64,000 nt of DNA from Syntrophaceae bacterium UBA6078 (GTDB lineage: Bacteria > Desulfobacterota > Syntrophia > Syntrophales > UBA2210), in NCBI GenBank assembly GCA_002428735.1, contig DIXO01000001.1, forward strand, positions 57,580 to 121,579, in the 5' to 3' direction. Position 1 is the first letter of the stretch. Every line of letters begins with the position of its first letter. Below the pieces are notes generated by a model that did not search any database, was not told where the DNA came from, and worked only from the letters and a program-made list of their open reading frames with translations. A program made the translations under genes and the position numbers. Shown piece after piece: positions 10,901 to 63,134 of this stretch.

Positions 10901-12105
10901 ACCATCTTCTTCGCGCTCTTGACGGTCGTCACGTATCCCTTTTCCTCAAGCCGGTTGTAGATAAACGGTTTGAACAGCTCCAGGGCCATCTTCTTGGGAA
11001 GTCCGCACTGGTGCAGCCTGAGATCGGGTCCCACCGTGATCACGGACCGTCCGGAATAGTCGACCCTCTTGCCGAGGAGATTCTGCCTGAACCGCCCCTG
11101 CTTTCCCTTGAGCATGTCGGACAGAGATTTCAGGGGGCGCTTGTTCGAACCGGTGACCGCACGGCCGCGCCTCCCGTTGTCGAAGAGGCAGTCCACCGCT
11201 TCCTGGAGCATCCGCTTCTCATTCCGTATGATGATCTCGGGGGCATTGAGCTCCAGAAGACGTTTCAAACGGTTGTTCCGGTTGATGACCCGCCGGTAGA
11301 GATCATTGAGATCTGAGGTGGCGAAACGCCCGCCATCCAAGGGAACCAGCGGCCTCAGGTCAGGGGGGATAACCGGGAGCACCGTCAGGATCATCCATTC
11401 CGGCCTGTTTCCCGATTTTCTCAGCGTTTCGACAACTTTCAGTCGTTTCGCGACCTTCGTCTTCTTCGTAACCGACGTTGACTCCCCGAGTTCGACCCGG
11501 AGTTCGCTGTCCAGTTCGTCGAGTTTGATTTCTTCCAGAAGCTTTCTGACGGCTTCGGCGCCTATACCCGCTTCAAAGGCGTTCTCTCCGTATTCATCCA
11601 GCAGTTCCAGATACCGGTCTTCGGAAAGAAGCTCCTTTTTCTGCAGAGGGGTATTTTTCGGGTCGACGACGATCCACGACTCAAAATATAACACCCTCTC
11701 CAACTCCTTCAGGGTCAGGTCCAGGACATTCCCGATCCTGCTGGGAAGGCTCTTGAGAAACCAGATATGCGCTACCGGCGATGCCAGGATGATATGCCCC
11801 ATCCTCTCCCTGCGGACCTTTGACTGAATGACTTCAACCCCGCATTTTTCGCACACCATTCCCCGGTGTTTCATTCTCTTGTACCGGCCGCAGAGGCATT
11901 CATAATCCTTGACCGGCCCGAAGATCTTCGCACAGAACAGGCCGTCCCTCTCAGGCTTGAATGTCCGGTAATTGATCGTCTCTGACTTTTTGACCTCGCC
12001 GCGAGACCACGAGATTATCGTTTCCGGCGAGGCCAGCGACACCTTAATGGCGTTGAACCGCACCGGATCCTTCGGCTTCTCGAAAAAACCATAAATATCT
12101 TCCAC
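7960..12105 (-). CDS. rpoC: DNA-directed RNA polymerase subunit beta'
   Basis: 1381-aa ORF with the catalytic [15 protein letters not shown] motif and Zn-binding CxC...CxxC near the N-terminus. Confidence 0.98.
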
Positions 12106-19477: not shown

Positions 19478-19554
19478 TGGCAGGCCAGGAGGGATTCGAA
19501 CCCCCAACACCCGGATTTGGAGTCCGGTGCTCTAGCCGTTAGAGCTACTGGCCT
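19478..19554 (-). tRNA. tRNA-Trp (anticodon CCA)
   Basis: Hand-folded cloverleaf on the minus strand: AGGCCAG acceptor, anticodon arm CCGGA-CTCCAAA-TCCGG, T-loop TTCGAAT, encoded CCA. It occupies the classic position between rpmG and secE. Confidence 0.9.
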
Positions 19555-19673
19555 GTTCCGGACACCATGCCCCTCGCGACACACTCAGGAAAACCGCACG
19601 GGGACATTTGCATTTTTCTCGCTTCACAACAGCGCCCCCGGAAGACATTCCTCGCCGCAAACACAGGGGATGG

Positions 19674-19823
19674 CTACTTCGTTTCTTTGTGTTCCGTATG
19701 CCGCTGACAGAATTTGCAATACTTCTTCATCTCAAGACGGTTTTTCGTGATCCGCTTGTTCTTCGTCGTCGTGTAATTTCTCTGTTTGCATTCCCCACAC
19801 GCAAGGGTAACGATATCTCTCAT
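19674..19823 (-). CDS. rpmG: 50S ribosomal protein L33
   Basis: Below the ORF-track size cutoff. My translation from ATG at 19823 is [49 protein letters not shown] (49 aa), with the CxxC...CxxC zinc-ribbon form of L33. Confidence 0.92.
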
Positions 19824-19848
19824 ATCGATCAACCTGCTTTCACCAAAA

Positions 19849-19924
19849 TGGAGCCCACGACCAGGATTGAACTGGTGACCTCATCCTTACCAAGGATGTG
19901 CTCTACCGACTGAGCTACGTGGGC
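19849..19924 (-). tRNA. tRNA-Thr (anticodon GGT)
   Basis: Minus-strand cloverleaf GCCCACG...CATCC-TTGGTAA-GGATG...TTCAATC...CGTGGGC-T-CCA. Confidence 0.9.
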
Positions 19925-19962
19925 CGATAACAATCCCCTTCCTCACTCCAGAGAGGCAAAAA

Positions 19963-20038
19963 TGGAGCGGGAAACGGGATTCGAACCCGCGACCCTCAGC
20001 TTGGAAGGCTGACGCTCTAGCCCCTGAGCTATTCCCGC
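19963..20038 (-). tRNA. tRNA-Gly (anticodon TCC)
   Basis: Minus-strand cloverleaf GCGGGAA...TCAGC-CTTCCAA-GCTGA...GCGGG-TTCGAAT-CCCGT...TTCCCGC-T-CCA. Confidence 0.9.
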
Positions 20039-20066
20039 CTCATGAAAATCCAAAATGACAAAAATA

Positions 20067-20151
20067 TGGTGGAGGGGGGAGGACTTGAACCTCCGTAGGC
20101 TTCGCCGGCAGATTTACAGTCTGCTCCCTTTGACCACTCGGGAACCCCTCC
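20067..20151 (-). tRNA. tRNA-Tyr (anticodon GTA)
   Basis: Minus-strand class II tRNA GGAGGGG...GCAGA-CTGTAAA-TCTGC with a long variable arm, then GGAGG-TTCAAGT-CCTCC...CCCCTCC-A-CCA. Confidence 0.9.
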
Positions 20152-20169
20152 ACACCAGTCATCAGCAAC

Positions 20170-20245
20170 TGGAGCTGGCGATGGGACTCGAACCCGCGAC
20201 CTGCTGATTACAAATCAGCTGCTCTACCAATTGAGCTACGCCAGC
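20170..20245 (-). tRNA. tRNA-Thr (anticodon TGT)
   Basis: Minus-strand cloverleaf GCTGGCG...GCTGA-TTTGTAA-TCAGC...TTCGAGT...CGCCAGC-T-CCA. There is one C-A mismatch in the T-stem. Confidence 0.85.
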
Positions 20246-30343: not shown

Positions 30344-30482
30344 CCTGCACAAAGCAAATCCCCATGGCCGGAACGCCTGATTTTGTTCGGGCACAGGACG
30401 AAAGGAGAGACGGATTCGTAGTTCCTGGCCGATCTTGTATTGCCGCTGCGTATATGATAGCTTTTTTGCAAGGAGAGCGCAT

Positions 30483-32012
30483 ATGGAGACCTTTGCACTG
30501 GCGGCGATCAGCCTCACGATTGCGGCTTCGCTGTTCATAAAAAGAACGAAACGGCCCCTCCATATCACGTTTGCCTCCCTGTGCCTCGGACTCTTTCTTG
30601 AAAAAACGGGGGTATTTTTCGGAGGGATCTTCCCCAATGGCTTCTGGAAGACACTGCACGTCCTGGGTCTTCTGGTGATACCTCCGCTGCTGATCGCCTT
30701 CAGCGTCATTTTCCTTGGTAACCACAGAGGGTATTCAAAAGGCCCGGCGGCATATGCGGGCATCGGAAGTCTGATCGCCGCCGCCCTATATTTTCCCTTC
30801 CTCTTCCACCGACCTTACGCCGTGGGTATTCTCTACCTCTACGTGGGAGCCACGCTGGCGTACTGTCTCGTCATGCTCTTTCAGGCGATACGCCATGCAC
30901 CCCGCAATGGGGAGCGTAAGAGGTTTATCTATGTGGCCGCAGCCTGCTCCGCCGCCGGCATCCTGAGTCTCACGGACATAGCACTCCGGTACCACCCCGG
31001 GGTCCCCCCCTTATCCGATATTTCACTGGCGTTTCTCATCTACTTCATCCTCGTCATCATTACCTATCCCCGCCTTCCGGAACTTCACGAAATAATGGTT
31101 CGGGCAGCCATCGTCTTCCTCCTGATGATTTTTGCAACGGTCACCTTTTATCTTGTCCTCGCCATGTTCGGAGACGGGGAGCATATCCCTCCGTTCAATC
31201 TGATATTCATGACGGCCTTCATCATCGTCATCTTTATAGACCCTGTTAAGCTGATTCTTAAGAAGGCGGGGATCTATCTCTTTCTCGAAGGGAAAGGATC
31301 GCTGAACTCCCTCTATACCATCGACGAAGAGATGGAGAGGGAGAAGGCTCTCCTCCTTGAAGAGATGGCGACCACCCTCGCGCACGAGATCCGCAATCCT
31401 CTCGGATCGATAAAAGGAGCCGCCCAGTACCTGAGATCGGACAGCGATTCAGAGGAGAATCGTGAACTCTTCAATGTCATTACCAGCGAAATCGACCGGC
31501 TGAACAATGTGGTCTCACGCTTCCTCAACTACGCGAAACCGGGGGCGATCAATCCCGATACCCGGAGTATGTCGGATATCCTGGAAAGAATTGTCACCCT
31601 GATCTCGTCACAGCATCTCGCTGAGGGGATCATCATCAAAAAGGACATCCCGCAGGACCTTCCCCCCGTCTGGGTTGACGGGGAACAGATGATGCAGGCG
31701 GTCCTGAATGTCACCCTGAACGCCGTGGAGGCCATGCCCACGGGGGGTACCCTGACCCTTTCGGCGAGGGTTGTGGATCCTGAAAGCGGCCCCTGGATCG
31801 AAATCGCCGTTGAGGATACGGGAGAGGGAATCGAGAAAAAAGCGATAAAACGTCTGTTCAAACCCTTTTATACAACCAAGGAAAAGGGCACAGGGATCGG
31901 CCTTGCCATCTCTCAGCAGATCGTCAAAGCCCACGGAGGGACTATCGACGTCACCTCCTCCCCGGGACGGGGATCGGTCTTTCACATACGGATACCGGTC
32001 CAAAGCCCATGA
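30483..32012 (+). CDS. Polytopic membrane sensor histidine kinase
   Basis: The ATG at 30483 (METFALAAISL) is followed by about 8-9 hydrophobic helices with short loops over ~270 aa. Then come the H-box LAHEIRNPLGSIKG and the ATPase N/G boxes (NAVEAM, EDTGEGI, GTGIGLAI). Confidence 0.88.
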   Translation: METFALAAISLTIAASLFIKRTKRPLHITFASLCLGLFLEKTGVFFGGIFPNGFWKTLHVLGLLVIPPLLIAFSVIFLGNHRGYSKGPAAYAGIGSLIAAALYFPFLFHRPYAVGILYLYVGATLAYCLVMLFQAIRHAPRNGERKRFIYVAAACSAAGILSLTDIALRYHPGVPPLSDISLAFLIYFILVIITYPRLPELHEIMVRAAIVFLLMIFATVTFYLVLAMFGDGEHIPPFNLIFMTAFIIVIFIDPVKLILKKAGIYLFLEGKGSLNSLYTIDEEMEREKALLLEEMATTLAHEIRNPLGSIKGAAQYLRSDSDSEENRELFNVITSEIDRLNNVVSRFLNYAKPGAINPDTRSMSDILERIVTLISSQHLAEGIIIKKDIPQDLPPVWVDGEQMMQAVLNVTLNAVEAMPTGGTLTLSARVVDPESGPWIEIAVEDTGEGIEKKAIKRLFKPFYTTKEKGTGIGLAISQQIVKAHGGTIDVTSSPGRGSVFHIRIPVQSP

Positions 32013-32105
32013 CTCTGCCGGTGAGACAAAGAGATTCCCGGACGCTTGACAGTATAACCATACTGTAATAGAACCGCACAGGAAACGATCCAGAGAACCG
32101 GTGGC

Positions 32106-33509
32106 ATGGGGCCAGACATGATCGGCGCAAAACCATTAGAAAAGAAGACCATATTGGTCGTCGACGATGAAAAGAGCATGCGGCTCGTTCTGTCCGCCAT
32201 GCTCAAAAAGGAAGGGTACGGAGTTGAGACTGCCGCCGACGGTTTCGAAGCCCTCGAGCTCATCAGGAGGAAGGATATCTCCGTCGTCGTCACCGATCTT
32301 AAGATGCCCCGTCTCGGCGGCATCGGCCTCTTGCGCCGGGTCATGGAAAAGCACCCCTCAGTGCCGGTCATCATCATCACAGCCCATGGCACCATAGAAA
32401 ACGCCGTCGAGGCCGTCAAGAAGGGGGCCTTCGACTATATTACCAAACCCTTCGATCAGGAAGACCTGAAAAACGTGATTGCCAAGGCGGTACAGACAAA
32501 ATCACTGAGCGACCGTGAGGTGGTCTTTGATTCCGTGGAGGGCGACCGCACCGTCCTCATAGGGACCAGCAAACCGATGCTGGATATATACGACATTATC
32601 AAAACGGTCGCGCCGACCCCGACTACCATTCTGATCACCGGAGAAACGGGGACGGGGAAAGAGCTCGTCGCCCGCGCGATTCATGAAAACAGTCCCCGAA
32701 GAGAAAATCCCTTTATCAAGATCAACTGCGCCGCCATCCCCGAAAACCTGATGGAAAGCGAACTGTTTGGATACGAGAAGGGGGCCTTCACCGGGGCCGT
32801 CCACAGAAAACCCGGAAGATTCGAACAGGCCAACACGGGAACACTGTTTCTCGATGAAATCGGCGATCTGCCGAAAGACATGCAGGCAAAGCTGCTCCGG
32901 ACGATCCAGGACCGGGAATTCGAACGGGTTGGCGGGGTACAGACCATCACGATCGACGTCAGACTGATCGCCGCCACGAACAGAGATCTTCTCCAGGATG
33001 TTCTGGACAAACGGTTCCGGGAAGATCTCTACTACCGGATCAATGTCATGCCCATCATTCTGCCGCCATTGCGGGACAGAAAGAATGACATCCCGCTCCT
33101 CCTGAATCACTTCATGGATAAATTCAACAGGAAACTGGACCGACACGTACGATGGATAGAACCGGAGGCTGAGCGGTTCTTTTGCGAATACAACTGGCCC
33201 GGGAATATCAGAGAGATGGAGAATCTCCTTGAGAGGCTCATTCTCCTTACGAGCGACGACACCATCCGCTACGACGCGCTCCCCGTCGAAATTCTGAACC
33301 AGCTCACTCTTGAGACGGTCGGGCCGGACGTAACCAGAGGCTCCATCAAAGAGATCGTCAGAAGCCGGGCCGAAGCGGCGGAGAGTCATATTATCGCGCG
33401 GGTTCTCGAACAGTGCGGTAAGAACGTAACCCGGGCGGCCGAGCGGCTGGGGATCAGCCGCAAGGGGCTGCAGCTGAAAATGATCAAGTACGGCTTGAGG
33501 AAACAATAA
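32106..33509 (+). CDS. Sigma-54-dependent response regulator (NtrC family)
   Basis: 467-aa ORF with a REC domain (ILVVDDE...VVTDLKMP), AAA+ Walker A GETGTGKE, the GAFTGA sigma-54 contact motif and a C-terminal HTH (NVTRAAERLGISRKGL). Confidence 0.92.
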   Translation: MGPDMIGAKPLEKKTILVVDDEKSMRLVLSAMLKKEGYGVETAADGFEALELIRRKDISVVVTDLKMPRLGGIGLLRRVMEKHPSVPVIIITAHGTIENAVEAVKKGAFDYITKPFDQEDLKNVIAKAVQTKSLSDREVVFDSVEGDRTVLIGTSKPMLDIYDIIKTVAPTPTTILITGETGTGKELVARAIHENSPRRENPFIKINCAAIPENLMESELFGYEKGAFTGAVHRKPGRFEQANTGTLFLDEIGDLPKDMQAKLLRTIQDREFERVGGVQTITIDVRLIAATNRDLLQDVLDKRFREDLYYRINVMPIILPPLRDRKNDIPLLLNHFMDKFNRKLDRHVRWIEPEAERFFCEYNWPGNIREMENLLERLILLTSDDTIRYDALPVEILNQLTLETVGPDVTRGSIKEIVRSRAEAAESHIIARVLEQCGKNVTRAAERLGISRKGLQLKMIKYGLRKQ

Positions 33510-57376: not shown

Positions 57377-58741
57377 TCATCCCTTTTGTTTCACTTCATC
57401 GAGTCCGTAGGCCTTGATCTTCTTGTGCAGATTGCTCCGTTCCAGCCCGATGGCCTTGGCCGTTTTCTTGATGTTCCACTTGTTTTCCGCCAGTTTCTGC
57501 GCAATATAGTCTTTCTCAAACTCCTCTTTCGCTCCCCTGAGGGAATCGCCGTCCCCGGAAGAAGCAGCGGGAGCGGCGGCGTGGCTTTCCCTCGAGAGAG
57601 GCGGTATGTCTCCGGCGGTAATGATTTCCGACGGGGATGTGATCGCCAGCCGCTCGATGATATTCTTCAACTCTCTCACGTTCCCGGGCCAGGTGTGCTC
57701 CATGAGAACGGCAAGGGCGGCATCGGCAATATGTTTCTCCGCCTTTGCCTCCTTGAGCGAAAAATCCCTCATGAATCGCCTTGCCAGGAGAGGAACATCC
57801 TCGATCCGTTCTCTCAGCGGGGGAACATGGAGCGGGATAACGTTCAACCGGTAGTACAGGTCCTGCCGGAAGCGCCCCTGCTCCATTTCGTATTCCAGAT
57901 CCTTATTGGTCGCCGCGATCACCCGGACGTCGGTATCGATAATCCGCGTCCCCCCTACCCTCTCGAACTTTTTTTCCTGAAGGATCCGGAGGATCTTTGC
58001 CTGCGCCTTCAGACTCATATCGGCGACCTCGTCAAGAAAAATGGTCCCTTTATTGGCAAGATCGAACTTCCCCCTCTTTTTCTCGGTGGCCCCGGTAAAA
58101 GCACCCTTTTCGTGTCCGAAGAGCTCGCTCTCGATCAACTCTTCGGGGATGGCGGCGCAATTCACCTCTATAAAAGGCTTGTTGGAACGGCTGCTCTGCC
58201 GGTGCAGCGATCGGGCGACGAGTTCCTTCCCCGTGCCATTCTCCCCCATGATCAGGATCCACGCGTTGGTGGGGGCGATGATCTGTATCATCTCCCGCAA
58301 TTCGATGATCACCTTGCTTGCCCCGTCGATATCGTGCAGCTGCCCGTTTTTTAACCGCCTGTTTTCCTCCTCCAGGCGCACGATATCCAGGGCGTGATTG
58401 ACGGCAAGAAGGGTCTTGTCAAGGGACAGGGGCTTCTCCACAAAATCGAAGGCCCCCAGTTTTGTCGTTGTGACCGCCGATTCAACCGTTCCATGTCCGG
58501 ATATCATGATAACCTGCATCTGGGGATATTTCGCCTTGATCCGTTTCAGCGTCTCGACGCCGTCGATTCCCGGAAGCCATATGTCCAGGAGAACGAGGCT
58601 GGGGAGTTCCTCCTCGATCCTGTCGAGACACGCCTCTCCGCTCTGAGCGGTCAGCACCTCGTACCCTTCGTCAGAAAGGATCCCCTTCAATGACTGGCAG
58701 ATAGTCTCTTCATCATCCACAACCAGTATCGTCTCGTTCAT
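57377..58741 (-). CDS. Sigma-54-dependent response regulator (NtrC/NtrX-like)
   Basis: 454-aa ORF with a REC domain (ILVVDDE...VLLDIWLP), Walker A GENGTGKE, GAFTGA and a C-terminal HTH (NIKKTAKAIGLERSNL). Confidence 0.92.
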   Translation of the reverse strand: MNETILVVDDEETICQSLKGILSDEGYEVLTAQSGEACLDRIEEELPSLVLLDIWLPGIDGVETLKRIKAKYPQMQVIMISGHGTVESAVTTTKLGAFDFVEKPLSLDKTLLAVNHALDIVRLEEENRRLKNGQLHDIDGASKVIIELREMIQIIAPTNAWILIMGENGTGKELVARSLHRQSSRSNKPFIEVNCAAIPEELIESELFGHEKGAFTGATEKKRGKFDLANKGTIFLDEVADMSLKAQAKILRILQEKKFERVGGTRIIDTDVRVIAATNKDLEYEMEQGRFRQDLYYRLNVIPLHVPPLRERIEDVPLLARRFMRDFSLKEAKAEKHIADAALAVLMEHTWPGNVRELKNIIERLAITSPSEIITAGDIPPLSRESHAAAPAASSGDGDSLRGAKEEFEKDYIAQKLAENKWNIKKTAKAIGLERSNLHKKIKAYGLDEVKQKG

Positions 58742-58748
58742 GTCTCTC

Positions 58749-60944
58749 CTATGCTACGGGCAGTTCGACGGTTACGATGGTTCCACCCTCCGTATTGTCG
58801 GTTATCTTCACGGAACCGTTATGATCGGATACAATGGAGCTCACAATGACAAGGCCGAGACCCGTCCCCGCCTTTTTTGTTGAAAAGTACGGTTCAAAGA
58901 GCCTCATCTTGTCTTCAGGCGAGATCCCGAGGCCGTTATCCCTGACAGCCAGATAGACCATTCTGTGTCTCTTCTCATATCGGGTACTGATTTCAATCCT
59001 TCCATCATGATCCACCGCCGAGACGGCCGCAACCGCATTGTCCAGGAGGTTGACCATCGCCCTCTTTACCTGCTCCGCATCGATATTGAGAATCGGGATA
59101 CGGGAATCCTTCTGAAAATCGAAGGCAATCTCTCTGTGGGCATCCTGGAAGAGGATAACCGCGTCTTCGACCACCGCGTTCAAGTCATTGGGGGACGGAT
59201 TGGTCACGGGCATCCTCGCGAACTGGGAGAATTCATTGACCAGGTTCTTCAGGAGTTCCACCTGATTGATGATGGTCTTCGTACACTCATGAAACACGGA
59301 ATCCGTTTCTCCATCGAGTCTGTCCCCGTATTTTCGCTGCAGCCGCTCCGCGCTCAGTTTGACGGGCGTCAGGGGATTCTTGATTTCATGGGCGATTCTT
59401 TTCGCGGCCTCTCTCCACGCGGCTATGCGCTCGGATTTTTGGAGCTGTGTGATGTCCTCGAACACGGCCACAATCCCCATGTACTGATTGTTATCATCTT
59501 TCAGGAGGGTCGCGGATATGAGAAGAACCATCACCTCATCCTTGACCGTCAGCTGCATCTGCCGCTCCACAAAGCCGCCATCGTTGGCGCGCAATTCCTG
59601 GAGAAGCTCATGGACCATCTCCATCTGTTCCGGTTTCAGAACATTCTCAAAGCGTCTGTTGAGGATCTCCTCTCCCCGTATGCCCAGCATCTTTTCAGCG
59701 GCGCTGTTGATGGTGCTCACCACATTATCCCTGTCGACGGAAACAACGCCGGCTGAAACATTGCGGAGAACCGTTTCCATATAGCTTCTGCGTTGTTCAA
59801 GATCCGCGTTGACCCGCTTCAATTCGAGGCTTCTTTCTTTCAGATCCTTCGTCATCTGGTTGAATGAATCGGCCAGGACTCCAATCTCATCTTCCGCGAG
59901 AACATCTATGTGGTAATCAAGGTTGCCGTGGGCGACCTCATGGGTCGCCTCGGCAAGTTCATGCACGGGAACGGTGATCCCCTTCGCCAGAAAGAGACCA
60001 AACCACATGGAAGAAAAGATTATCAGAAGGGTAACAATGAAGAGGGTCACGATATAACTGATCTTTAGGGGATTTTTCAACAGTTTCAGCTGGTCGTATT
60101 CCTCGGCTGTCCGGGATATGACGGCCATCTTATCAATCAATTCCTTATCCATATAATAACTGACAGCGATGATCCCGATAACCTCTTTCGGAGTAAAATT
60201 GGAATAGATCGGGGCTATCCCGCTGATGAGATCGCCCCCTCCCACGGAGCTGACCATGGAAAGGTCCTTCCCCATAAAAATGTCTTCCAGGGTCCGGGGA
60301 GAAAACCGGGGGGCGAGGATATCGGGATTGTCAGGGTCCTTGAGAAAGAGCTCCTCATTTCTGTTGTCAAAGCGGACGAGGACGGTTCCGAGCCTGAAAT
60401 GCCGCTGCCGTTGAGTCAGGAAGCCCTTGAGATACTCGGACTGTTCTTTCTCATAGAGCTTGTTGTCGGTTATCTCAGAACCGATCTGAAGCGCGTAATT
60501 CTTCGCATTATCCGAAAGCCGCTGATAGTAATCCTGGGCAACCTCAAGGGACAGGGTAAACGCCCTCCCCATCTTGATGTCAAAACGGCTGTCTATGCTG
60601 TATGTGAGAAACTGAATGGAAACCAGAAACAGGACGACCGTGGGGATCAGGGAAAGGATCATGAAGGCGACAACGAGCTTTGTTCTCAGCTTTGAACCCA
60701 GAATTCCCCGTCTTCGCTCAAATATGAGTTTGGTCAGATTTCGCGCGATCAGAAAAACAAGAAAGATGATCAGGATCAGATTGATATTGATCAGGCCGAA
60801 AATAAGCACCTCATTGGACATCGGCAGAAGAACATCGATGGTGGAAAGGTGGCTTTCTATGTAGGTGAGAACAATGATGACGGCGATGACAACCAGTATG
60901 GCGATGCGTTCTCTTCGGCGTTTTTTTAATTCATCAGCATCCAT
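58749..60944 (-). CDS. NtrY-like sensor histidine kinase (TM-HAMP-PAS-HisKA-HATPase)
   Basis: 731-aa ORF. N-terminal TM helices are followed by a ~200-aa extracytoplasmic-looking segment, a further TM helix and a HAMP domain. Then come a PAS-like region, the H-box IAHEIKNPLTPVK and the ATPase boxes (NAVAA, DNGLGI, GTGLGL). Confidence 0.85.
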   Translation of the reverse strand: MDADELKKRRRERIAILVVIAVIIVLTYIESHLSTIDVLLPMSNEVLIFGLININLILIIFLVFLIARNLTKLIFERRRGILGSKLRTKLVVAFMILSLIPTVVLFLVSIQFLTYSIDSRFDIKMGRAFTLSLEVAQDYYQRLSDNAKNYALQIGSEITDNKLYEKEQSEYLKGFLTQRQRHFRLGTVLVRFDNRNEELFLKDPDNPDILAPRFSPRTLEDIFMGKDLSMVSSVGGGDLISGIAPIYSNFTPKEVIGIIAVSYYMDKELIDKMAVISRTAEEYDQLKLLKNPLKISYIVTLFIVTLLIIFSSMWFGLFLAKGITVPVHELAEATHEVAHGNLDYHIDVLAEDEIGVLADSFNQMTKDLKERSLELKRVNADLEQRRSYMETVLRNVSAGVVSVDRDNVVSTINSAAEKMLGIRGEEILNRRFENVLKPEQMEMVHELLQELRANDGGFVERQMQLTVKDEVMVLLISATLLKDDNNQYMGIVAVFEDITQLQKSERIAAWREAAKRIAHEIKNPLTPVKLSAERLQRKYGDRLDGETDSVFHECTKTIINQVELLKNLVNEFSQFARMPVTNPSPNDLNAVVEDAVILFQDAHREIAFDFQKDSRIPILNIDAEQVKRAMVNLLDNAVAAVSAVDHDGRIEISTRYEKRHRMVYLAVRDNGLGISPEDKMRLFEPYFSTKKAGTGLGLVIVSSIVSDHNGSVKITDNTEGGTIVTVELPVA

Positions 60945-61146
60945 CTGTATGCCACCGCGTCAGACGGCATGTATCTTGGAGGGCTAAAACGCGAGCGCCA
61001 GAGAGAACGCCGACCACGGGCCAATCTGCCGCTTCGTCCCGAAGATACATGCAGTGTATATCCCGTATTGTTCCAACAACGAATGAAACCTGAGTCAACC
61101 ACCCGGACACCGACTCGCTTCGCTCGCTGGTATGAATTCTGCCTGC

Positions 61147-61178
61147 AATTTTTACCGCGTCAACGACTTGTAAAAATT
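61147..61178. repeat. Hairpin/palindrome copy A (variant arms)
   Basis: AATTTTTAC, then 14 nt (CGCGTCAACGACTT), then GTAAAAATT. The arms are perfect over 9 bp. Confidence 0.85.
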
Positions 61179-61201
61179 GGGCTTTATTCATTCGACTTGC
61201 C

Positions 61202-61231
61202 GGTTTCACTGCGTCAAAGATTTGTGAAACC
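61202..61231. repeat. Hairpin/palindrome copy B
   Basis: GGTTTCAC, then 14 nt (TGCGTCAAAGATTT), then GTGAAACC. The arms are perfect over 8 bp. Confidence 0.85.
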
Positions 61232-61288
61232 TGAGTCAATCACCCGGACACCGACTCGCTTCGATCGCTGGTGTTAATTCGACTTGCC

Positions 61289-61318
61289 GGTTTCACTGCG
61301 TCAAAAACTTGTGAAACC
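61289..61318. repeat. Hairpin/palindrome copy C
   Basis: GGTTTCAC, then 14 nt (TGCGTCAAAAACTT), then GTGAAACC. The arms are perfect over 8 bp. Confidence 0.85.
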
Positions 61319-61327
61319 TGAGTCTCA

Positions 61328-61882
61328 TTAATATACGAAGTCCTGTCTCGCCCAGTCGGTTTCAAAATCCCACAGGGACACGAAAAAGAAAACGTACTCC
61401 AGATGCAGCGGAAGACGAACCGCATCCAGTTTCGCCTTTGCCCGCAGATAGTAGCGTTCCCCCCTTGTCAGCTCCGTCAGAGGCGTCAATGAGACGCCGT
61501 TCAGTTCGGCCATCGCGTCCTTCGCCTCTGAAAATTCCTTGAACTGCTCCGGCTCTTTCCCCTCTTCGCTGAAGAGGACATAAAAGATTTTTTTAATATT
61601 GTCGTATTTGATCGTGTGCCTCACCTCATGGACAGACACCTTTTTATCAAACCACCAGCGACGCTCCCGGCATAATTCCAGAATAACCGTAAAGGTGGTC
61701 GGGATTCCGGCGAGGATCGCCTCCTCCATCTTTTCCGTAAAACAGTTTTCCAGTTTCAGATACACAAGCAGGTGTTCTGGCGTATTGCTTATCAGCAGAT
61801 CCGCGACTTTCGCTTCCGCCGCGAATCCGTGCACCGGAAAAAGAAAACAGCACGCTACTATGAGGAGTTTGCAACAGCGCAT
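61328..61882 (-). CDS. Secreted protein of unknown function (DUF4390-like)
   Basis: 184-aa ORF with the signal peptide MRCCKLLIVACCFLFPVHGFAAEA. The family name is from memory of DUF4390 genes lying next to NtrY-type kinases and has not been verified. Confidence 0.55.
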   Translation of the reverse strand: MRCCKLLIVACCFLFPVHGFAAEAKVADLLISNTPEHLLVYLKLENCFTEKMEEAILAGIPTTFTVILELCRERRWWFDKKVSVHEVRHTIKYDNIKKIFYVLFSEEGKEPEQFKEFSEAKDAMAELNGVSLTPLTELTRGERYYLRAKAKLDAVRLPLHLEYVFFFVSLWDFETDWARQDFVY

Positions 61883-62006: not shown

Positions 62007-62948
62007 TTAATCGGCGGCAGGCAGTGAAACCTCATCCGGAGAATCATAGGGGCGGGCGTCGATGATATCATCGAACAGTTCCCATTGGCCGTTGAAATAA
62101 TGGACCATCTCCCAGCGCTCCCGGTGCTCCAGGAGTGTTTTCAGAAGGAGATTGTTGAGCCGGTGGCCGGACCGGTACGCCACGAAGTGGCCGATGATGG
62201 GCATCCCGAGGAGGGACAGGTCTCCAATGGCATCCAGCACCTTGTGCTTCACAAACTCATCAGGGAATCGAAGCCCTTCTTTATTGATAATCTTTTCTTC
62301 ACCCAGGACTATGGCGTTGCGAAGAGAGCCTCCCAGAGCCAGGCCCCGCGCCTGAAGATACTCGACCTCATGGAGAAAACCGAAGGTGCGGGCCGCGCAG
62401 ATATCACGTTCGTAAGCCTCGGGAGAAAAGACCATATCGCATGATTGTCTCCCTATCAATGGGTGACTGAAATCTATATCATAGGTTATCCTGAACTCAG
62501 GGGAGGGAAGTAGGGCGGCGTGTCCCTCATCATCGGAGACGGAAACCGGCTCCTTTATCACCACGCACCGTTTTGGCTTATCCTGCGATTTGATGCCCGC
62601 ATTCTTGAGAAAATTGACAAAAGGGAGAGAACTGCCATCCATGATCGGGATTTCGAAGGAATCCGTTTCGATAATCGCGTTGTCTATCCCCATGCCGAAA
62701 CACGCGGACAGGAGGTGTTCAACCGTGGAAATCCTGGTCCCATTCGTTCCCAGAGTCGTTGCCAGCGTCGTGTCGGACACGCTGAGCGGCTCCGCTTTGA
62801 TTCCGTCGCTTCCCGGCTGGTCGCTCCGGTAAAACACGATGCCTTCATCAACTCCCGCCGGCCTGATGGTCATATTGATCTTCCTGCCCGAGTGGAGTCC
62901 CACACTTTTGCAGGATATCTCTTTTCCAATGGTCTTTTGTACGTACAT
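62007..62948 (-). CDS. lpxC: UDP-3-O-acyl-N-acetylglucosamine deacetylase
   Basis: 313 aa from the ATG at 62948 (MYVQKTIGKEISCKSVGLHSGRKINMTIRPA), with ...TVEHLLSA... and HFVAYRSGHRLNN motifs. The track ORF has 20 extra upstream codons. Confidence 0.92.
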   Translation of the reverse strand: MYVQKTIGKEISCKSVGLHSGRKINMTIRPAGVDEGIVFYRSDQPGSDGIKAEPLSVSDTTLATTLGTNGTRISTVEHLLSACFGMGIDNAIIETDSFEIPIMDGSSLPFVNFLKNAGIKSQDKPKRCVVIKEPVSVSDDEGHAALLPSPEFRITYDIDFSHPLIGRQSCDMVFSPEAYERDICAARTFGFLHEVEYLQARGLALGGSLRNAIVLGEEKIINKEGLRFPDEFVKHKVLDAIGDLSLLGMPIIGHFVAYRSGHRLNNLLLKTLLEHRERWEMVHYFNGQWELFDDIIDARPYDSPDEVSLPAAD

Positions 62949-63134
62949 CTGCCCGCCTTTCGGAGAAGAGAGCAGCAATAAGCATACCAGGCATCCGAAG
63001 AGGGGCACCGGATGTCCATCGATTACGCAACACTATGGGATTACGAAGAGTATTTTTCTCGTGCCGGTTTCTGACTACTGCATCATGGGCACCCGATCCC
63101 CATAAAGGTGTGTTGAAAAAGACACACGGATGTG

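Follow-up and report, generated by a model that had tools for sequence, protein, structure and literature searches.

Correia- and ERIC-type miniature elements are processed by RNase III or RNase E and affect the levels of the mRNAs that flank them. Repetitive extragenic palindromes (REPs) have been tied to mRNA stability and to differential expression inside operons (PMC3184786). The spacer of a two-component-system operon is where mycobacterial interspersed repetitive units (MIRUs) first came to notice, to judge from the title of Supply et al. 1997 (cited in PMC3184786); they are part of polycistronic transcripts, show tetranucleotide direct repeats at filled sites, and are absent from the homologous site in relatives (PMC3184786). 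BOX elements of Streptococcus pneumoniae are likewise found in transcripts, have a predicted action at the RNA level, and influence how neighboring genes are expressed (PMC3184786). Here, we describe an array of hairpin repeats in a 64,000-nt stretch of the Syntrophaceae bacterium UBA6078 genome (contig DIXO01000001.1; hereafter, the window), where it lies between a DUF4390 gene and a gene for an NtrY-like histidine kinase. PlrP, for which a role as third component of NtrYX-type systems was recently proposed, belongs to the DUF4390 family, and in Bordetella, plrP and plrS are expressed from one promoter (PMC13001219).

The hairpin family to which the array belongs is modular, covarying, and strand biased; it has been kept in place at this locus, varies in copy number between strains, and occurs in two genomic contexts. 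We regard the array as the resident copy of an undescribed, low-copy modular hairpin-repeat family of Syntrophales-type genomes, whose members would be co-transcribed as RNA hairpins with a role in intercistronic processing or stability, and we put the probability of this reading at roughly 0.5.

A repeated, covarying hairpin module

Coordinates are those of the window, and the informative strand of the array is the minus strand, as for all flanking genes. The array extends over 61063-61331, from the TTAA at 61328-61331, in which the DUF4390 gene has its stop codon, to a decayed copy at the other end. A preliminary description of this DNA had placed a repeat array at 61084-61324; the array is real, but its true extent is larger. 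The direct repeat reported there, with a 54-nt insertion and 93% identity between copies, is borne out: a short unit of 87 nt (61238-61324) precedes a long unit of 141 nt (61097-61237) that consists of 87 nt and a 54-nt insert at 61133-61186, and without the insert, the two differ at 6 of 87 positions.

All three palindromes of that description were found. Two cores read GGTTTCAC-N14-GTGAAACC (61202-61231 and 61289-61318), and the third, in the insert, reads CAATTTTTAC-N14-GTAAAAATTG (61146-61179), although its arms measure 10 bp, one pair more than had been stated. Paired substitutions in the arms had also been claimed, correctly, as three stem pairs of the inserted hairpin differ from those of the other two and all are compensated (T-A to C-G, T-A to G-C, and A-T to G-C). 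The third copy, with the sequence ...AAAAACTT, departs from the consensus given for the conserved 14-nt centers, YGCGTCAANGAYTT. A loop pattern matches three times. Neither this pattern nor the dyad pattern, which also has three matches, occurs elsewhere in the 64-kb window, and 0 of 100 shuffles reached three matches with either.

The repeats are built from a 50-nt module with TTAA on either side. In gene sense, this module folds into an irregular hairpin of ~62 nt with about 22 bp, and the 36-nt tail that comes next contains another small hairpin. On the minus strand, the array reads as module A and tail, then module A, a nested module B, and tail, and finally the decayed extra copy. Module A1 (61274-61331; TTAA, the 50-nt palindromic module, and TTAA) has a folding energy of -18.2 kcal/mol (z = -4.1) and scores 74.4 bits with a covariance model. 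Tail 1 (61238-61273) forms the small P2 hairpin ACACC...GGUGU at 61248-61274, with a conserved purine-rich loop, in an RNAalifold prediction from 12 units. The long unit begins with module A2 (61191-61237; 68.2 bits), the second A hairpin, and continues with module B (61133-61190; 73.1 bits), a nested paralogous hairpin whose extra 54 nt amount to a 50-nt module and a 4-nt flank and whose flanks, TGAA...TTCA, are a compensated variant of TTAA...TTAA. Tail 2 (61097-61132) has its P2 hairpin at 61107-61133. In the decayed terminal copy (61063-61096), the left arm and loop can be recognized, and the right arm is unpaired, as seen by comparison with an intact hairpin of locus L009 and with L004. 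L numbers denote either the same locus from metagenomes and metagenome-assembled genomes (MAGs), with the spacer read in each, or contigs of the second context and of other binding-protein loci.

The hairpin of module A1 comprises, from its base, a P0 stem (UUAAU/AUUAA), a tandem GA/GA, GACU/AGUC, a CA bulge, a stem of 8 to 10 bp, an AA/GCA internal loop, 3 bp, and a UUU loop. An alignment of 29 modules backs the stem at 10 bp, the internal loop as AA/GYR, the 3-bp apical stem, and the UUU loop. RNAalifold finds three further covarying pairs below the CA bulge, ACU/AGU in A modules versus GCC/GGC in B modules, and single-sequence folds add the outer UUAAU/AUUAA stem across the tandem GA/GA. 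This outer TTAA stem also covaries, as it reads UGAAU/AUUCA in module B of the window and UAAAU/AUUUA in L011 and has a G·U intermediate in L013.

The preliminary description had proposed a covariation analysis. In 29 distinct modules from relatives, the sequences of which are related to each other, 96.2% of the pair cells are paired, compared with 82.1% in column shuffles (the observed value was reached in 0 of 500) and 32 to 45% with slid partners, and 9 of 13 named pairs show changes on both sides. Nineteen pairs are nearly fully paired in 27 modules, and the folding energies of the modules range from -18 to -26 kcal/mol (z-scores, -4 to -6). The letters of the stem differ among lineages and always do so on both arms, with pairs such as GGTTTCAC/GTGAAACC, GGTTTCAT/ATGAAACC, AGTTTTCAT/ATGAAAGCT, GGTCTTC/GAAGACC, and AGTTTTTAT/ATAAAAACT. 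The tail hairpin, A[C/U]ACC...GGU[G/A]U with the conserved loop GAGCGRAGCGA, shows a C-G to U-A change in half of the 12 units analyzed with RNAalifold. Strong covariation across the 29 modules thus supports the view, already expressed in the preliminary description, that selection acts on a stem and that the repeat is not a decaying duplication. Inspection by eye for a pseudoknot between the hairpin loop and the tail loop revealed no consistent complementarity. The unpaired nucleotides are conserved across modules as well, namely, the GA/GA pair, the CA bulge, the AA/GYR internal loop, and the UUU tip, which hints at recognition by a specific protein.

The module is also strand biased. In gene-sense orientation, G·U pairs outnumber A·C pairs by ~24 to 5 (summed over two pair sets), and in 21 of 25 distinct modules, the more stable fold is that of the sense strand (means, -17.7 versus -15.7 kcal/mol; Wilcoxon p about 0.001, a value that is indicative only, as the sequences are related). 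Loop, bulge, and flanks are asymmetric. Where the preliminary description had left the choice between a structured RNA and a dyad-symmetric protein site, the G·U excess and the better folding of the sense strand favor the structured RNA.

Conservation and copy number at the DUF4390-ntrY locus

In distant orthologues, the third codon positions of the DUF4390 gene are 46 to 55% identical and the first repeat unit is 72 to 86% identical, a level comparable to that of codon positions 1 and 2. At single-copy orthologous hairpins, for example, between L005 and L038, compensatory changes and G·U intermediates arose in place. At short distance, the window and L002 are 99% identical in the gene but only 91% in the unit, and the loop and closing pair of module A are swapped in both copies together, which argues for concerted evolution within arrays.

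The closest DUF4390 relatives of the window come from Syntrophales/Syntrophaceae MAGs. The element is present where the DUF4390 protein is 64 to 99% identical to that of the window, in differing copy numbers. There is one unit in L005, L009, and L013, two in the window and L002, and at least four in L011; L004, L010, L012, L014, and L040 have no copy or a remnant only. L002 and L003, with identical DUF4390 proteins, have spacers that differ by exactly one 87-nt unit, and units of 85 and 86 nt exist in relatives. The nested module B is shared with L002, L011, L013, and L048 and, in the second context, with L041, L044, L046, L049, and L051. Hybrid modules that combine the left arm of module A, a loop, and the right arm of module B (L036, 3561-3614; L037, 2312-2365; L042, about 4990-4900; and L046, about 500-450) pair poorly and look like deletions by recombination between the homologous loops; the same type of event is seen in both genomic contexts. 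Unequal recombination between repeats adds and removes units, and the copies within an array evolve in concert.

Metagenome contigs repeatedly end within the array (L001, L035, L037, L047, L048, and L051), as can be expected of repeats, whether tandem or at two loci, that break assemblies. Other repeat elements were seen in the same spacer of relatives (L013, 6400-6900; L010, 760-900), one of them flanked by inverted repeats of the type GGATAGGCTGAAGGC...GCCTTCAGCCTATCC, and the L013 spacer also holds a run of short repeats of the GTGTTTTCGT type. The DUF4390-ntrY spacer seems to be an insertion hot spot.

A second genomic context

A strict pattern for the conserved tail identified 12 loci in metagenome contigs, 6 of them in the DUF4390-ntrY spacer and 6 in one other context. 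There, tandem paralogues flank the element, which lies 3' of a gene for a Peripla_BP_6 (LivK-type) binding protein and of the intrinsic terminator of that gene. No sequence upstream of TTAA is common to the two contexts, and they are homologous from there on (TGAGAC...). The TTAA is part of a "TAT TAA" stop codon in one and of the terminator tail TTTTTTAA in the other. The closest named relatives of the second-context binding protein in a homology search are from Syntrophales/Smithellaceae MAGs, and in L040, the binding-protein paralogues share a 2.79-Mb contig with a DUF4390 homologue.

A covariance-model scan of 582 kb plus 68 kb of sequence (about 650 kb) detected no further module copy. 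A search of the unit against wider DNA had been suggested in the preliminary description; blastn against about 650 kb retrieved no further copies. The second context is known from the metagenomes. Other binding-protein loci of the clade (L054 to L057) lack the element, an exact 30-mer of the hairpin has 0 matches in the GTDB representative genomes, and in viral contigs, the tail pattern is absent and the module-flank pattern has one chance match, in a coding region, that the covariance model does not match. Rfam returned nothing at the gathering threshold in the window and, at E <= 10, only chance matches to miRNAs and leaders (in the window array and the L044 array). With four or more equally detectable contexts, finding 12 loci in only two would be very unlikely, and we therefore infer that the family is of low copy number.

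Some features of individual second-context loci deserve mention. In L041, an insertion sequence (IS)-like terminus adjoins the right arm of a hairpin module (TTAC followed by GGTGCAGGTCGAAT), beside a duplicated tail-plus-promoter segment. IS insertion at REPs is known, and the L041 case recalls it. This terminus is that of a partial open reading frame (ORF) at about 10950-11214 on the minus strand that runs off the contig end (...MDVKEHCAE and stop). In L044 (6570-7010), L042, and L046, a conserved TTGACA-containing box (TTTTCTCTTGACAGGGAAAGGC) and a leader of ~400 nt are found 3' of the array, before the next binding-protein gene. L046 has a good sigma-54-like sequence, TGGTAGTACGATTGC, near the binding-protein gene, the GG of which is lost in L044, and in L054, similar binding-protein genes adjoin a gene for a PAS/sigma-54 activator.

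Operon setting

The array is embedded in a string of genes on the minus strand. The LpxC gene (62007-63008) has an ORF of 333 amino acids from 63008; this start is probably overextended, as relatives are called at 313 amino acids, and the likely start is 62948. It is followed by the DUF4390 (PlrP-like) gene at 61328-61882 (Pfam PF14334; E = 1.6e-41), whose stop codon TAA (61328-61330) lies within the 5' TTAA of the first module. Pfam identified the genes for the NtrY-like histidine kinase (58749-60944) and the NtrX-like sigma-54 activator (57377-58741), the product of which has an intact GAFTGA motif.

A sigma-54-type -24/-12 motif, TGGTATGCTTATTGCT, is located at 62974-62989 on the minus strand, about 26 nt upstream of the likely lpxC start. 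The motif occupies the same position in 13 orthologous loci, even distant ones (L001, L002, L004, L009, L013 to L016, L036, L037, L043, L050, and L052), and is the probable promoter of an lpxC-DUF4390-[array]-ntrY-ntrX unit, so that the array probably resides within a sigma-54-driven transcript. Possibly, the GAFTGA-bearing NtrX-like activator autoregulates this unit. Terminator prediction gave nothing between DUF4390 and the array, and this, together with the same-strand gene string and the conserved promoter before lpxC, suggests that the array is transcribed within the mRNA. Only about 45 nt separate the end of the last hairpin from the ntrY ATG in L043, L050, and L052, leaving little room for an independent ntrY promoter.

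Outside the repeat family, a long-range helix is predicted at 60967-61052 on the minus strand. Its 11 bp (GCAUGUAUCUU/AAGAUACAUGC) join 61042-61052 to 60967-60977 around a GC-rich, variable segment that lies immediately upstream of the ribosome-binding site of ntrY. The arms have changed yet remain paired in L002 and L009, where the enclosed segment is about 46 nt longer. This helix may be a separate regulatory structure or represent the ends of another small insertion.

Farther away in the window are a cluster of five tRNA genes (19481-20245, minus strand) and a second histidine kinase/sigma-54 activator pair (30435-33509, plus strand). The other ORFs scanned between 20 and 57 kb are of the housekeeping type (fatty-acid synthesis, glycolysis, and carbamoyl-phosphate synthase), with no mobile-element genes among them.

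A possible role between cistrons

If the array is co-transcribed, it would form a set of stable RNA hairpins between cistrons. By analogy with REP, BOX, MIRU, and Correia elements, these might serve as substrates of an RNase III-type enzyme or as a barrier to 3' exonucleases. Such a processing site or decay barrier would uncouple the amount of the periplasmic DUF4390/PlrP protein from that of the kinase and regulator, and the strength of the effect would follow the number of units. In the model proposed for PlrP, the amount of this protein relative to the kinase determines if the latter works as a phosphatase (PMC13001219). A structure of variable copy number exactly between the two genes is, for that reason, a plausible natural knob on the PlrP:kinase ratio in uncultured syntrophs.

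A more far-reaching version, which we offer as speculation and consider rather unlikely, is that the module constitutes a new protein-recognized RNA motif (GA/GA, CA bulge, AA/GYR loop, UUU tip, and GAAUUAA flank). Arrays of it would then act as a copy-number-tunable rheostat of PlrP/DUF4390 versus NtrY/NtrX, and likewise at one amino-acid binding-protein locus, in syntrophic Syntrophales.

Several points weigh against the putative processing or stability role in RNA. Strand bias alone cannot distinguish RNA from single-stranded DNA, because G·T is the most tolerated mismatch in single-stranded DNA hairpins too. The shuffle statistics overstate the significance of the covariation, given the relatedness of the aligned sequences. 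The stems are AU rich and, at about -18 kcal/mol per module, would hold up exonucleases less well than the GC-rich stems of classical REPs. The second-context array follows a strong intrinsic terminator, and read-through would be low there. A -10-like box (GATAAT/GATACAT) near ntrY is a candidate internal promoter. Finally, the decay of the terminal copy and the loss of the element from several lineages mean that any function must be dispensable.

Whatever the role, the hairpin module combines deep covariation and conservation of one site across lineages with nearly saturated synonymous sites with a number that nevertheless varies between near-identical strains, and it is absent from Rfam. The covariation of the family is unusually clean, and the position between PlrP-like and NtrY-like genes gives it moderate interest.

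Alternative explanations

The alternative that holds up best, and that we consider possible though not probable, is a selfish miniature mobile element without host function, either resembling a MITE (miniature inverted-repeat transposable element) with TTAA target-site duplication or a single-stranded DNA hairpin of the REP/RAYT type. Hairpin, loop, and flanks would then be preserved since the mobilizing enzyme needs them. Every module is bounded by TTAA or a variant thereof, and the long unit exceeds the short one by exactly 54 nt (50 + 4), placed at the TTAA on the 3' side of module A. A 54-nt insert in TTAA is also expected from tandem duplication, however, and the TTAA flanks may be stem rather than duplication because they pair and covary. 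Mobility would likewise account for the start of homology between the two contexts precisely at a preexisting TTAA, the patchy presence among relatives, the many contigs that break within the array, and the IS-like end next to a hairpin arm in L041. On the other hand, a mobile element would not be expected to occupy only two contexts in 12 metagenome loci and no other in about 650 kb, to acquire compensatory changes in place at single-copy orthologous hairpins, or to be retained at the same site across lineages with near-saturated synonymous sites. A Pfam scan of roughly 30 window ORFs found no transposase or Y1/RAYT gene and revealed no related IS that might be a parent of the element. The selfish and host-function readings are compatible and not exclusive. 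We favor a host-level role because of the low copy number, the in-place compensatory changes, and the lack of a transposase nearby. Even if the array were only selfish DNA, it would still record a small TTAA-bounded repeat family in Syntrophales and explain the assembly breaks at this locus.

Identical tandem hairpins with conserved loops and covarying stems, in variable number, would also suit an independent trans-acting RNA, such as a multihairpin small RNA, a CsrB/RsmZ-like protein sponge, or a processed repeat RNA like a type III antitoxin. The second-context array, which has a terminator before it and the next promoter after it as a free-standing gene would, fits such an RNA as well. We consider it improbable, since predictions gave the array neither a promoter nor a terminator of its own, a conserved GGA is missing from the loops, the adjacent genes are not toxin-like, and the first-context array fills the intercistronic gap and begins inside the upstream stop codon. 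Specific candidates of this kind were rejected on the same features: a CsrA-type sponge because of the GGA-less loops and a ToxI-like type III antitoxin because the neighbors are DUF4390, NtrY-like kinase, or binding-protein genes and no toxin.

The preliminary description had proposed a locus-specific operator or enhancer for NtrX. More generally, the array might be bound by protein as double-stranded DNA, be it through NtrX in autoregulation or through IHF-type sites as in BIME-1 (a bacterial interspersed mosaic element) and Correia elements. On the plus strand, the window loops read TCAA-N4-TTG, which we take to resemble the IHF core. The loops of all three window hairpins contain CAA-N4-TTG, in agreement with the NtrX site CAA-N3-5-TTG in the ntrY promoter of Brucella and Sinorhizobium (PMC9223101). 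The position upstream of ntrY would also fit, as would that upstream of a binding-protein gene in the second context, such genes adjoining a sigma-54 activator gene in one relative. Across the family, however, CAA-N4-TTG is found in only 5 of the 29 distinct modules, TCAA-N4-TTR in 9, and WATCAA-N4-TTR in 0, and the C of the NtrX motif is the closing base of the stem and covaries with its partner. The arms covary freely while pairing, so that half-sites are not conserved, and loop, CA bulge, and flanks lack the symmetry of a dyad-symmetric protein site. The distance to the downstream start codon or promoter ranges from about 45 to >300 nt. The sigma-54-like motif reported earlier in the spacer (TGGCCCGTGGTCGGC; 61009-61023, minus strand) is present but has lost its GG or GC in L002, L004, and L009, and the sigma-54 promoter that is conserved stands 1.7 kb upstream, in front of lpxC.

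A role specific to this locus is further contradicted by the 6 of 12 metagenome loci where the element sits 3' of the unrelated Peripla_BP_6 gene and by the many orthologous spacers without it (absent or a remnant in the five loci listed above). Dozens of scattered copies, or absence from orthologous spacers, had been named beforehand as observations that would speak against such a role; an unrelated spacer is indeed occupied and several orthologous spacers lack the element, but copies do not run to dozens in the sequences searched. The array is most likely not an NtrX-binding operator, and a double-stranded DNA-binding array of any kind is very improbable.

Translated mini-ORFs that couple DUF4390 and ntrY translation, as proposed for MIRUs, are scarcely credible and already largely refuted, for although the window units are multiples of three (87, 141, and 54 nt) and a 101-codon ORF (61239 to 60934) extends across the long unit to a point 10 nt beyond the ntrY ATG, relatives have 85- and 86-nt units, most lineages have a UAA within "CAUAAG" in that frame, and substitutions track base pairing, not codons. 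A CRISPR array was rejected since the 57-nt segments between the hairpins are themselves repeated and conserved across loci, and an integron attC site was rejected since there is no integrase neighbor and the R-box match is poor.

Comparison with known repeat families

Among described systems, NtrX operators in Brucella and Sinorhizobium share with the window array the location upstream of ntrY and the CAA-N4-TTG motif in its three copies. They differ in that the motif is a minority feature of the hairpin family, that the element also occurs at an unrelated locus, and that the regulator here is GAFTGA bearing with its likely promoter before lpxC.

Like the modules described here, Correia- and ERIC-type MITEs end in inverted repeats that, once transcribed, pair to form a long irregular hairpin, and their short AT-rich flanking duplications may have a counterpart in the TTAA that bounds each module. 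They are, however, single units of 100 to 150 bp in high copy, and Correia elements duplicate TA, whereas the array family consists of 50-nt modules with TTAA flanks, in low copy and in tandem with a conserved tail. BOX elements resemble the family in being modular, with a variable count of tandem internal modules, but have three module types (A, B, and C) in >100 dispersed copies and are unrelated in sequence.

The likeness to MIRUs lies in the tandem units of 40 to 100 bp in an operon spacer and their strain-variable number, the units here being 85 to 87 and 141 nt and numbering 0 to at least 4. MIRUs occupy 40 to 50 loci and contain small ORFs that overlap neighboring genes, whereas the array family has no conserved ORF (owing to UAA or a frameshift in most relatives) and does have a covarying hairpin. 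The two belong to different phyla and have no sequence relationship.

REPs and BIMEs are similar in more respects. They, too, are short palindromic modules placed immediately 3' of genes, in intergenic or intercistronic DNA, and some of these genes encode periplasmic binding proteins (as in the malE-malF and hisJ-hisQ spacers); they are co-transcribed (as is probable here), form hairpins, are clustered with linker motifs, and vary in number between strains. With cores of 30 to 34 nt in extended hairpins of ~62 nt, located in spacers, the modules fall within the description of REPs as imperfect extragenic palindromes of 21 to 65 nt. REPs, however, are GC rich, number hundreds per genome, alternate in orientation within BIMEs, and have a conserved 5' tetranucleotide and a cognate RAYT gene. 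The array family has AU-rich stems, direct orientation in every array, only two contexts among the 12 metagenome loci, no GTAG-like motif, and no RAYT gene among the window ORFs scanned; its 5' flank reads UUAAUGAGAC, and it thus departs from REPs in both the tetranucleotide and the alternation and probably in copy number. By analogy, then, the array family would appear to work most like transcribed intergenic palindromic repeats.

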